From an uncultured Enterobacterales bacterium (lineage in GTDB: Bacteria > Myxococcota_A > UBA796 > CAJQPC01), in the NCBI GenBank assembly GCA_964567625.1, contig CAZMNK010000004.1, forward strand, positions 1 through 63,186: a stretch of 63,186 bases of DNA. Reading direction: 5' to 3'. The translations under genes were made by a program, and so were the position numbers. The notes under the pieces are model-generated. The model was not told the origin of the DNA. It saw only the letters and a program-made list of their open reading frames with translations, and made no database searches. Position 1 is the stretch's first letter; every line of letters starts with the position of its first letter. This document shows, piece by piece, positions 57,678 through 60,218 of the stretch.

Positions 57678-60218
57678 CTAGGGGGCGTTCAGATCCAGGA
57701 GGAAGGGGTCGGTGGCGAGCAGATCCTCCGCCGTCAGGGTGCGGCAGCTGTTCAGGGCGCCTTTGACAGCGCACAGTTCGTGGAGGTCGGTGTCCGAGGG
57801 GACCTGGACTCGCACGGGCGAACGGCCCAGGGAGTGCTCGTCCAGGGTGATCAGGGCGCCGTCCGGGGTGGTGAGGACAGTGACTCCTGGCCCATCGGCC
57901 GCGGCATCGACCCGCGTGGGAAGAGCCGGGGTTGGATTCTGCGTGGGGGTCTTTGGGGGTGCTTCGACTGGGTCCAGTGGTTGTGAGAACCACCAGGCGA
58001 GGACGAGAAAGATCAGGGATCCGAAGAAGAAAATCCGACCCCACGGCAGCCCCCCGCCCTCAATCGTCAACTCACGCACGGGGGTGCTGGGGAGACTGCG
58101 GGCGAGTTCCTCGAAGGTTCGTCCTCCGGTCTGCGTCCACTTGCCAGCCCCGAGTTCGTCTTCCCTGCTTGGGTCGTTCTTTACGCCGATGGCTCCGGGC
58201 AGATCCAGGTCTCCAAGGTGGGGTTGTCGGGACAGGATGCTGGTTGTGTTGGGGTCCACGGGGGTCTTGAAGGCGCTGGAATCGCGAGGCCTGTTCTGAG
58301 GGGGAGAGATCGAGGGAACTGGCTTCGCGGAGATCGGTGAGGGTTCTGGCGCCCGGTCGGCAGGGGTTGACGGCAGGTCCGGGATCGGAGGAGCAGGAGC
58401 GAGAAACGGGTCCAGATCCAGAAAGGTTTCATGCTCTGGCTCTGGCTCTGGCTCTGGCTCTGGTTCCAACTCCAACTCTGGCTCTGGCTCTGGTTCTGGC
58501 TCGGGCTCGGGCTCCAACTCCGGTTCTGGCTCAGGTTCCAACTCCGGCTCTGGTTCCGGCTCTGGTTCAACCTCGTACTCGGGCTCGACCTCGTACTTGG
58601 GCTCCGACTCTGGTTCTGATTCCGGCTCCGGCTCCGGCTCGGGTTCCAACTCGGGCTCCGGTTCCAGCTCCGAATCGAGTTCCAACTCCGGTTCTGGTTC
58701 GGGCTCCGGTTCGGGCTCTCTTTCCGGTTCAAGTTCGAACTCCAGCGCTGGTTCCAACTCCGGCTCAGGCTCGGGTTCGGGTTCTGGTTCTGGTTCTGGT
58801 TCCGGCTCGGGTTCCGGTTCCGGCTCTGGCTCAGGCTCCGGCTCCGGTTCTGGCTCAGGATCTGGTTCGGGCTCAGGCTCAGGCTCCGGTTCTGGTTCGG
58901 GCTCAGGCTCAGGCTCCGGTTCTGGCTCAGGCTCTGGTTCTGGCTCAGGCTCAGGCTCTGGTTCTGGCTCAGGCTCCGGCTCCGGTTCTGGCTCCGGCTC
59001 CGGCTCCGGCTCCGGCTCCGGCTCCGGCTCTGGCTCTGGTTCCGGCTCAGGCTCAGGCTCAGGCTCTGGCTCTGGTTCCGGCTCAGGCTCAGGCTCAGGC
59101 TCTGGCTCTGGTTCCGGCTCTGGCTCAGGCTCCGGTTCTGGCTCTGGTTCTGGTTCTGGCTCAGGCTCCGGTTCTGGCTCTGGTTCCAACTCCGGCTCAG
59201 GCTCGGGTTCCGGTTCCGGTTCCGGTTCCGGCTCGGGTTCCGGTTCCGGCTCAGGCTCAGGCTCAGGCTCGGGTTCGGGTTCCGGCTCCGGCACGAGTTC
59301 CAGTTCTGGCTCTGGCTCGAGTTCCAACTCCGGCTCTGGCTCTGGCGCTGGCTCTGGCGCTGGCTCTGGCGCTGGCTCGAGTTCCAACTCCGGCTCCAGA
59401 TCCGGGACCACCACGAGCATCTTGGGATCTTCGAGGAGCGTTGCCGGATCGGCGTCCTCGGAAGGCAGGGTCACGGTGCCTGGATGCCGAAGGGCCTTGC
59501 CGAGTCCTGCTTGTTCCAGGAATCCCCTGAGGGCTTCTTCCTGCTCGGTCCGACCCCTGAAGACCGCTCCCATCGCCTGGCGAGCGAATCGCGCTGGCGT
59601 CAGGCGGAAGCGGGGTTTCGTTCGCAGCAGCCCGGACAGGAAGAGCTTGCCTCTGGCGTCGTCTATGCCGTCCAGGGTCAGGTCCTCTGGCATGACCGCG
59701 GGGGCTGGGAAGTCCAGGCCCAACAGGTAGAGCATGATGCCGGCCACAAGCCAGCAGTCCAGGGCCATGGACGACTCTTCACCCGAGGGATCGGGGACAC
59801 TCTCCCCGTGGAGGGCGGGCAGGATGCGCAGTCGTCCCTGGGAGTCGAATCCGATGCCAGCAGGATCCAGGTGACCGTGCCAGCGCCCCTGTTCATGGAG
59901 TGGCTCCAGTGCCTCCAGGAGCAACAGGCCGATGGTGAAGGCCATGGAAGGAGAGGCCTCCTGGCGGAGGTCTTGCAGCGCGATCGAACGATCCTCGGGG
60001 ATCAGGACCCAGGTGCCTTCGGGGCCCTGTCCCCAGGTCAGCTCTGCCCAGGGTCCGCCCTGGGGCAGGCCTGCGGCCTCTTGGACGAGTCTCCGATCAC
60101 CCTGTACAACCTGGGCTCTTCGGCCATCGGGATGCACTGCGGAGTGGCGTGAACGGTCTCCATGGGAGGCCAGCAACTCTCCGATCAGTTCGAATCCGTT
60201 GGGAAGGTCCGATGCCAT
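57678..60218 (-). CDS. membrane-anchored pseudokinase with ~324-aa Glu-Pro repeat and C-terminal PEGA-like domain
   Basis: 846 aa. The N-terminal ~220 aa has kinase-like blocks with catalytic residues replaced ([12 protein letters not shown] vs HRDLKPxNI; RILPAL vs DFG; [20 protein letters not shown] vs the D.WS.G helix). The (EP)n region is encoded by 58431-59402. It is followed by a P/S-rich linker, the TM helix [18 protein letters not shown], and [29 protein letters not shown] (PEGA pattern). Confidence 0.7.
58431..59402 (-). repeat. ~970-nt coding hexanucleotide-periodic repeat, (GAR CCN)n = (Glu-Pro)n
   Basis: The plus strand reads GGYTCN units almost without interruption, e.g. a (GGCTCC)x6 run near 58990-59030. 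It is punctuated by Leu/Ala/Val/Lys/Tyr/Ser/Asp codons. Synonymous codon mixing breaks most long perfect runs. Confidence 0.9.

Follow-up and report, generated by a model that had tools for sequence, protein, structure and literature searches.

The window analysed here is a stretch of 63,186 nucleotides from an uncultured marine bacterium (contig CAZMNK010000004.1 of assembly GCA_964567625.1), and the subject of this account is one gene near its right end, a complete open reading frame (ORF) on the minus strand that encodes 846 amino acids. The protein begins with a kinase fold from which the catalytic residues are missing, continues through a non-globular stretch of about 490 residues, of which 321 form a Glu-Pro tract, and ends with a conserved motif, a single transmembrane helix and a small β domain that resembles PEGA (Table 1). 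Judged by its relatives, it appears to belong to a previously unannotated, Pfam-invisible family of pseudokinases, in which the architecture and a gene partner are conserved, and the window member carries the most extreme linker seen in that family.

An earlier note on this DNA, made by a model from the letters alone, had described a dead kinase with a long Glu-Pro rod, and the ORF lies exactly where it had placed it, on the minus strand, with an ATG start and 846 codons. The start codon is backed by the homologues, the N-termini of which align from Met1, and the G+C content of the ORF region (63-67%) is similar to that of the rest of the window. The exact protein is absent from a collection of 15 billion proteins, and no Rfam family reaches its gathering score anywhere in the 63-kb window.

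Table 1. Coordinates of the pseudokinase gene, its parts and its two neighbours
Feature	Residues	Coordinates	Strand	Basis
Complete ORF: pseudokinase, long linker, transmembrane helix, PEGA-like domain	1-846	57678..60218	-	ATG start, 846 aa and stop codon
Predicted two-lobed Hanks-type kinase fold (pseudokinase); N-lobe ~8-75, C-lobe ~76-235	1-235	59514..60218	-	AF2, Foldseek, family profile vs PDB
Catalytic-loop remnant HGHLDPAGI	114-122	59853..59879	-	hhalign vs PknB, CDK7 alignment, family alignment
PAL in the place of DFG	134-136	59811..59819	-	family alignment, hhalign
Non-repetitive connector from kinase fold to repeat	236-273	59400..59513	-	sequence; partly conserved in close homologues
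Glu-Pro tract, 321 aa	274-594	58437..59399	-	TRF and sequence composition
Longest unbroken run, (EP)54	345-452	58863..59186	-	sequence
P/S-rich non-repetitive linker	595-677	58188..58436	-	sequence
Juxtamembrane motif, family-conserved	678-717	58068..58187	-	family alignment
Single transmembrane helix	728-746	57981..58037	-	hydropathy; position conserved in homologues
P/T-rich linker, predicted extracytoplasmic	747-776	57891..57980	-	sequence, family alignment
PEGA-like β domain	777-846	57681..57890	-	Pfam PEGA match, family C-termini, invariant Cys
Partner gene, ~1000-aa STAND-like (AAA_16) and TPR protein		60320..63186	+	open frame past window end; TPR matches; L005 identity
uvrC		55703..57571	-	co-directional, 106 nt downstream; all UvrC Pfam domains

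A kinase fold without catalytic residues

The kinase fold of the N-terminal domain is accepted because three lines of evidence agree independently: a sequence bridge to a recognised kinase, a comparison of the family profile with known structures, and a predicted structure. The family was revealed by an exhaustive phmmer search with residues 1-270 against 1.84 billion representative proteins; word-indexed searches added little (1, 5 and 12 proteins). The search gave 64 proteins at the threshold of E <= 0.001, of which 34 also pass E <= 1e-10. P0062, a CHCH-domain protein (E 5e-4) with a 6.4-bit stretch, was dropped from the 64 as a likely spurious match, leaving 63 relatives. The family alignment referred to in the following consists of 30 full N-domains.

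The bridge is P0059, which phmmer reaches at E 7e-5 and which is itself Pfam Pkinase-positive (E 4.9e-27). When the family alignment is compared with P0059 by hhalign, the match, which extends over αD, αE, the catalytic loop and αF, has a probability of 95% (E 2.8e-8). A comparison of the family profile with the PDB gives 454 matches at E <= 10; protein kinases account for every one of the best 60, with E values from 0.007 to 0.05, and the matches always cover αE and the catalytic loop. The AlphaFold2 (AF2) model of residues 1-235, calculated from the 30-sequence alignment, has a mean predicted local distance difference test (pLDDT) score of 93.5 and a predicted template modelling (pTM) score of 0.91; an alignment of only two sequences gave a pLDDT of 45.6, so that the larger alignment was needed for a good model. 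The elements follow each other in the order β1-β2-β3, short αC, β4-β5, αD, long αE, β7-β8, αF and three further helices. Foldseek found 1906 PDB matches to this model at E <= 0.001, the best 50 of which are all protein kinases, and the top match is PknB of Mycobacterium tuberculosis (5u94; E 6.6e-10, probability 1.00, TMq 0.67, about 260 aligned columns). In the model, then, residues 1-235 make up a complete two-lobed kinase domain in a compact form.

The earlier note had recognised in the first ~220 residues the pattern of a kinase C-lobe. The kinase fold stands, and a search for it did not come back empty, while the limitation to the C-lobe falls, since both lobes are there. Its placements of the HRDLKPxNI, DFG and D.WS.G.. 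motifs recur in every independent alignment: HGHLDPAGI corresponds to HRDxKPxNI, Pro134 of ILPAL to the DFG Asp, and ALDCWLVAG to the DxWSxG helix. Even a single-sequence phmmer search of the PDB, with a best match to CDK7 of only E~0.8, yields the same register. The hidden Markov model (HMM) comparison that the note had proposed for residues 1-225 has a divided outcome, in that the family profile matches the kinases of the PDB while Pfam Pkinase (PF00069) does not match at all. Scans with Pfam (at E <= 10) and with NCBIfam gave no kinase match, neither for the whole protein nor for residues 1-225; among the 30 N-domains only one reaches even E 0.39 with Pfam Pkinase, and among the scanned relatives only P0059 is positive. 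None of the 63 relatives carries a kinase annotation. The databases name them 'hypothetical protein' or 'PEGA domain-containing protein', and they come from Deltaproteobacteria or from 'Alphaproteobacteria' metagenome-assembled genomes (MAGs).

P0059 deserves a remark in its own right. It is a metagenome protein of 737 residues with tandem kinase domains, the N-terminal one followed by a second, degenerate one that has SLGDLTPESI in its catalytic loop and LPT for DFG. This second domain is the closest Pfam-detectable relative of the family and is a possible evolutionary intermediate.

Placement of the individual residues by hhalign against the PknB kinase domain sets H-R-D-V-K-P-A-N against H114-G115-H116-L-D118-P-A-G121. 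The HRD Asp is thus replaced by His116, the Lys by Asp118 and the Asn by Gly121, and DFG is replaced by P134-A135-L136. H114 and G115 are nearly constant across the family, position 116 is variable (H/R/A/G/P/L/F/C), and P134 is near-invariant within a motif RPAL. Strand β3 comprises residues 34-40, RAQVVQG (AEVxxG in the family), and Lys occurs there in none of the sequences, in any column; the β1-β2 loop, LLASHGDRS, has a single Gly and no GxGxxG. For these two elements the register is that of the AF2 secondary structure rather than of a residue-level structural alignment. None of the 30 aligned members retains the DFG Asp or the β3 Lys. Furthermore, the gap between β8 and αF is only ~18 residues, and there is therefore no real activation loop.

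The residues that have been kept are structural ones. The invariant or near-invariant positions are His108 (end of αE), His114, Asp154 (the Asp of DxW, where αF starts), Arg205 and Pro208, the last two of which we take as the conserved Arg region of the late C-lobe. The family also has a conserved motif of its own, LP.[WG]GP[FW], at residues 51-57 between αC and β4. By sequence, this is the classic pattern of a pseudokinase retained for its shape, and the combination of a predicted kinase fold with loss of the VAIK Lys, the HRD Asp and the DFG Asp throughout the family fits the definition of a pseudokinase. The earlier note had found no GxGxxG loop, no VAIK Lys, no catalytic Asp and no DFG Asp; both the protein and the family alignment bear this out, and the hhalign and family alignments brought no intact catalytic residues to light.

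The linker and its Glu-Pro tract

Linkers were measured from the kinase fold to the juxtamembrane motif in 24 near-complete representatives. They are 251-620 residues long (median 409), of low complexity, and net negative in 23 of the 24, and the linker of the window protein is the least complex of all, with 2.5 bits per residue. Their chemistry differs greatly between lineages. Glu-Pro repeats occur in the window protein and in its nearest relative L002 (N-domain 65% identical), whose contig ends in the EP run; HE/DE/PEP repeats are found in L003 and EEPEA repeats in L004. P0010 has PAPKP-type proline repeats, with 37% Pro and a net charge of +6. P0004 has a helix-type A/E/R/K repeat linker of 455 residues with 2% Pro+Gly and 0.20 opposite-charge i/i+4 pairs per residue; P0014 has an (EAERx)n linker that is ER/K-like and helical, with ~2-3% Pro+Gly; and many other relatives have generic acidic disorder. 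The closest relatives also run into acidic E/P repeats, where their contigs end.

Since the same position is filled by EP, PAPKP, ER/K-type or acidic segments, the conserved property of the leash would be its length and extension, and not its sequence. The EP tract then appears as one lineage's answer to the need for a spacer, with Glu-Pro chemistry itself not the functional element. The long spacer of the earlier note is thereby confirmed by the orthologues, while its EP composition is not a conserved feature. From the number of relatives (64 proteins listed, one of them likely spurious) and the conserved synteny, the family as a whole appears to be under purifying selection.

The tract itself contains 152 Glu, 133 Pro, 19 Leu and 17 other residues, with a net charge of -152, and the ~324 residues of nearly pure Glu-Pro in the earlier note are here measured as 321. 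Within it lie the unbroken runs (EP)16, (EP)54 and (EP)16. At the DNA level, Tandem Repeats Finder (TRF) detects 162 copies of a period of 6 nt in 58433-59405, with matches of 74%. The array is no pure microsatellite: it mixes synonymous codons (GAG 99, GAA 53; CCA 50, CCG 42, CCT 24, CCC 17), and no stretch longer than 59 nt is repeated exactly. Since neither of the Glu codons nor any of the four Pro codons is avoided, it follows that the dipeptide pattern has been kept while the DNA has drifted, and this fits selection on the protein. It follows also, from the same diversity, that the array can be assembled.

The reality of the tract was examined in metagenomes. The unique flank is present in more than 20 marine or seawater runs, with up to 100% of sampled words, and contigs match both flanks without mismatch at ~8x depth. 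One contig of 386 nt extends over 58438-58817 and carries an in-frame insertion of 6 nt, GGTTCG (+ strand) at window position 58695 (depth 11 of 16), which is a natural repeat-length polymorphism of one dipeptide unit. Inside 58866-59270 there are many exact pieces of 40-60 nt, with organism-level depth of 4-13x in two runs. Because flanks, 386-nt piece and internal pieces all recur, the tract is judged to be real and length-polymorphic by at least one dipeptide, with 321 residues as the length in the assembly.

Three observations on the repeat DNA stand beside this. Hexamers of the (GAGCCN)n type are very abundant in marine metagenomes, with word depths of 500-6000x over parts of 58424-59274 as compared with ~8x on the unique flanks, from which it follows that many unrelated organisms carry similar EP-, GS- or SG-coding repeats. 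On the plus strand, antisense ORFs at 58337-59730, encoding 397 residues rich in Ala, Leu, Pro and Val and, at 58597-59730, 377 residues of GSGSGS type, were rejected as genes, being mirror images of the EP codons; such mirror ORFs could mislead gene callers. Finally, the Pfam model Trypan_PARP (PF05887) scores 90.5 bits on the tract, below its cutoff of 100 and confined to the repeat, and homology to procyclin was rejected as the match is sub-threshold and compositional only.

The membrane end and the neighbouring genes

The juxtamembrane motif, which the earlier note had overlooked together with the STAND/TPR neighbour and the uvrC context, reads GV..D.SRE.ELGxGKW...GR..EEL...P.TPVRE. When the family is aligned around GxGKW, its L, G, G, K, W and two R are invariant. 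The motif has a match in neither Pfam nor the PDB, and a profile of juxtamembrane motif, transmembrane helix and PEGA-like domain gives only noise against the PDB (transmembrane regions of YidC and VirB10, E>0.4). The P/S-rich linker and the one strong transmembrane helix of the earlier note are both in place: residues 729-745 have a mean Kyte-Doolittle value of 2.15, the strongest in the protein apart from the buried αF helix of the kinase fold. In 14 of the 24 near-complete relatives the chain stops within a few residues after this helix, i.e., they are tail-anchored, and the essential parts must therefore lie N-terminal to it.

For the C-terminal domain, the assignment as PEGA-like is well supported by the family sequences and marginal for the window sequence alone. 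PEGA (PF08308) scores 22.1 bits on the isolated C-terminus and 18.5 on the full protein, with a cutoff of 20.8, and the match covers only profile positions 4-34 of 71. Among the family C-termini, 9 of 11 aligned sequences match Pfam PEGA, with a best E of 1.5e-7, so that the PEGA end of the earlier note, checked by HMM as it had proposed, holds well for the family and is borderline for this member. A PDGA motif lies at residues 785-788, and two family-invariant Cys residues, C816 and C825, are found in this domain.

The topology is taken to be N-in and C-out, i.e., pseudokinase and EP tract would be cytoplasmic and the PEGA-like domain periplasmic. This is because no signal peptide is seen in the window protein, because 727 residues, including the kinase fold and 152 net negative charges, precede the sole transmembrane helix, because so many relatives are tail-anchored, and because the Cys pair occurs only at the C-terminus. 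The positive-inside rule is uninformative here, as there is one Lys or Arg on each side of the helix.

The gene for the putative partner is divergent, upstream and ~100 nt from the pseudokinase gene, and its product is 39% identical end to end with the corresponding neighbour in the Myxococcota MAG locus L005. A divergent gene for a ~1000-residue AAA_16/nSTAND6-like and TPR protein is present in all eight loci that were compared (window, L001, L005, L006, L007, L008, L009, L010). On the other side, uvrC follows immediately downstream in the window and in L005, L006, L007, L008 and L010, is absent at L009, and lies beyond the end of the contig, if anywhere, in L001. The N-domains of the homologues at these loci are only ~33-42% identical, and the gene order has therefore been kept over considerable divergence. 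To judge from these loci, the constant unit would be the pair with the STAND/TPR gene. Pseudokinase gene and uvrC are probably co-transcribed; no terminator-like site lies between them, and a promoter and terminator scan of 57300-60600 was empty. The adjacency need not imply a function in repair: in Escherichia coli, uvrY-uvrC is the classic operon of a signalling gene and uvrC, and the signalling gene is not known to have a repair role.

The Walker A motif of the partner, compared between the window, L001, L005-L007, L009 and L010, is degenerate. Its form is G-x-x-G-x-G-[K/R]-x-W-L, with Arg in place of Lys in 4 of the 7 orthologues, including that of the window (GSGGIGRMW), and the usual Ser/Thr in none. 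The partner may thus be a pseudo-NTPase, in which case the pair would consist of two 'dead' enzyme folds. Neither the pseudokinase nor the STAND neighbour matches the PADLOC defence models significantly (marginal matches only, E 0.004-0.008).

It was also observed that the C-terminus of the partner ends in acidic Ala/Glu/Pro repeats, AAPEAEAAPEVEAAPEVEAAPEA in the window (~63100-63186, +) and AAEEAPAAEEAP in L005 (2986-3100, -), from which follows that a low-complexity acidic character is common to the partner and to the pseudokinase linker. Beyond uvrC lie a lipoprotein-like ORF (54984-55706, +), with a low-complexity N-region rich in DTG and DSA and no Pfam match, and a gene for a Sir2-family deacetylase (54217-55179, -); this part of the window, 54217-55706, is syntenic with L005 10112-11580.

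A proposed pseudokinase scaffold on a long leash

It is judged moderately probable that the protein is a bitopic inner-membrane protein that acts as a non-catalytic pseudokinase scaffold on a long leash and works with the STAND/TPR partner. The pseudokinase domain would be a protein-binding module at the end of the extended leash, and the single C-terminal transmembrane helix would anchor the protein in the inner membrane. By gene neighbourhood, the STAND-like/TPR protein is the most likely partner. It could bind to the pseudokinase domain or to the juxtamembrane motif, the latter because TPR domains typically bind short linear motifs. In those members that have a PEGA domain, the domain would serve as an anchor or a sensor in the periplasm. 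The picture drawn by the earlier note, of a dead kinase held at the cytoplasmic face of the membrane by a long acidic spacer, is thus supported by the fold, the lost residues and the topology, and the word scaffold interprets these. Its rod of ~100 nm is correct as a contour length (321 residues of ~0.31 nm each in a perfect polyproline-II helix) and, as an actual reach, an upper bound: with a persistence length of a few nm, a worm-like chain would have a mean reach of a few tens of nm.

Several points weigh against this picture. The leash may behave as a flexible polyelectrolyte and not as a rod, and the degenerate pocket of the kinase fold may still bind nucleotide. The partner was assigned from gene order, within one lineage. 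Expression, for which the earlier note had called on RNA-seq, is seen as one unique 158-nt contig (57785-57942) in the rRNA-depleted metatranscriptome of a sample that contains the organism; three metatranscriptomes from the same samples were examined, and the other matches in them were spurious repeat matches. The short-read contigs of the metagenomes, finally, break inside the repeat, and none spans 58462-59349.

This last circumstance is what gives substance to the alternative that the size of the tract is an assembly artefact, from a collapsed or expanded repeat or a chimeric join, and that the true protein is shorter or interrupted. In the unspanned interval there are spurious joints and very high depth from unrelated repeats, one in-frame length variant of 6 nt exists, and a search for long-read runs gave none. 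Yet both junctions and several internal 40-60-nt unitigs are 100% identical to the assembly, the 386-nt contig covers one end, the codons are too diverse to leave exact repeats above 59 nt, and the open frame joins two conserved domains. Moreover, linkers of 251-620 residues are the rule among the relatives, and the contig of the nearest one likewise ends inside an EP run. The artefact is accordingly considered very unlikely. The earlier note had itself named an interrupted frame or an artefactual repeat as what would overturn it; the frame is open and the flanks and internal pieces are reproduced, and what is left is the total length across the interval. The topology disposes of another alternative, namely that the tract is a periplasmic rod that spans the periplasm as in TonB. 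EP repeats are best known from TonB, and one transmembrane helix with a β-rich terminal domain would fit such a design. However, the tract lies N-terminal to the only transmembrane helix, with no signal peptide before it, and follows a kinase fold, which is a cytoplasmic type of domain; 14 of 24 near-complete relatives have next to nothing beyond the helix; and there is neither a KP half nor a Pfam match to the TonB C-terminal domain. A TonB-like rod has almost no probability left and is rejected.

Two further alternatives concern what the parts do. The N-terminal domain could be active, as an atypical enzyme or a nucleotide sensor that uses non-canonical residues in the manner of WNK, SelO or SidJ-type folds. 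Other pseudokinase folds have indeed proved active in the literature, which includes a paper on SidJ (PMC6858067), and the motifs LP.[WG]GP[FW], HG at HRD and RPAL at DFG are unusual and conserved. All elements that contact ATP and Mg are gone, however, with variable, hydrophobic or Pro residues in their positions, and with ~18 residues between β8 and αF there is no real activation loop, so that an active domain is thought highly improbable. Less easily dismissed, though still unlikely, is the idea that the key property of the tract is charge and not length, the polyanion of -152 serving as a store of Mg2+ or Ca2+, as a DNA mimic, or as a sponge for basic nucleoid or ribosomal proteins. The net negative linkers of nearly all near-complete relatives (23 of 24), the EP, HE/DE or EEPEA repeats of the closest ones, and uvrC, which lies immediately downstream at most loci and hints at DNA, speak for it. 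A strong negative charge is not universal, however, because the linker of P0010 has a net charge of +6 with its 37% Pro and that of P0004 has only -24 over 507 residues with 20% Lys+Arg. The hint from uvrC is countered by L009, where uvrC is missing and the STAND partner stays, and by the E. coli operon mentioned above.

The reading of the protein as a leashed scaffold can be sharpened into a bolder proposal, which is held to be quite unlikely. The protein would be a cytoplasmic 'molecular ruler', in which the anchor, sometimes with a PEGA sensor, holds a hub of pseudokinase and STAND/TPR protein at a fixed distance from the inner membrane, of the order of tens of nm, perhaps at the surface of the nucleoid. 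Different lineages would have converged on stiff spacers, i.e., EP and PAPKP polyproline-II helices and ER/K single α-helices, and the operon with uvrC would couple the state of the envelope to DNA repair or to nucleoid organisation.

As a membrane-tethered receptor with a kinase fold, the protein is of an already familiar kind. The PknB receptor kinases of M. tuberculosis (PDB 1MRU/5U94) share with it the N-terminal cytoplasmic kinase fold, the juxtamembrane linker, the single transmembrane helix and the small outer β domain. It differs from them in lacking catalytic and ATP-binding residues, in a domain of 235 residues with an activation segment of ~18, in a linker of ~490 residues that is roughly ten times longer, in an outer domain that is PEGA-like and not PASTA, and in its invisibility to Pfam Pkinase. 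The (EP)n(KP)m rod of TonB resembles the tract in its alternating Glu-Pro, its expected extended polyproline-II form, its inner-membrane anchor and its role as a spacer, but it is periplasmic, has a basic KP half and is only a few tens of residues long, whereas the tract is purely acidic, 321 residues long and predicted to be cytoplasmic. The EP procyclin of Trypanosoma brucei likewise has a long acidic EP repeat beside a membrane anchor, and Trypan_PARP is the only Pfam model that responds to the tract; procyclin, however, is an extracellular, GPI-anchored coat protein of a eukaryote, with a repeat several-fold shorter than (EP)54. Similar in design are SpmX, ZipA and the FtsK linker, in which a binding domain is connected to an inner-membrane anchor by a long Pro-rich or charged low-complexity linker with a fast-evolving sequence and a conserved length. 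These have no sequence relationship to the window protein and act in division or polarity with known partners, while nothing found in this analysis links the window family to division.

Pseudokinases of bacteria are a small group and not well understood. Seven families of them, collected as PF00069 homologues (ActPs1-3, GLW, DLHK, DYD and CP1), are described in the bSTK Atlas preprint (10.1101/2025.01.12.632604), as is a pseudokinase domain in MviN/MurJ. Like ActPs1/2 and GLW, the window family lacks the VAIK Lys, the HRD Asp and the DFG Asp, and the shortened activation loop reported for the MviN domain resembles that of the window protein. In contrast to the Atlas families, the window family scores nothing on PF00069; and because the census started from kinases that Pfam can detect, this family would probably escape it. 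When compared by description and not by sequence, none of the Atlas families is reported with a linker of 250-620 residues, with this juxtamembrane motif or with PEGA, a word that occurs 0 times in 10.1101/2025.01.12.632604. The literature search found no paper that pairs a pseudokinase with PEGA and no description of this architecture, for which the earlier note had known of no described function.

That the family is strictly paired with a STAND/TPR protein of which the Walker A motif is itself degenerate points to a module for signalling or organisation that would consist wholly of 'dead' enzyme folds. The family also provides a natural experiment on long disordered or rod-like cytoplasmic linkers, in which the flanking domains are kept while the linker is repeatedly rewritten, and for studies of Glu-Pro repeat biophysics, (EP)54 within its 321-residue tract offers an extreme case.

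A last observation concerns the names of the genomes. In a profile search with a 4-sequence alignment, which gave four MAG loci, the closest genome matches were to MAGs labelled Myxococcota bacterium, and a further two carry the label 'uncultured Enterobacterales'. L002 and L003, which are the two closest relatives among the genomes, with N-domains 61-65% identical to that of the window protein and a similar coding style of high G+C, are deposited as MAGs of an 'uncultured Enterobacterales bacterium', and because of the high G+C this label is almost certainly a taxonomic mislabel.

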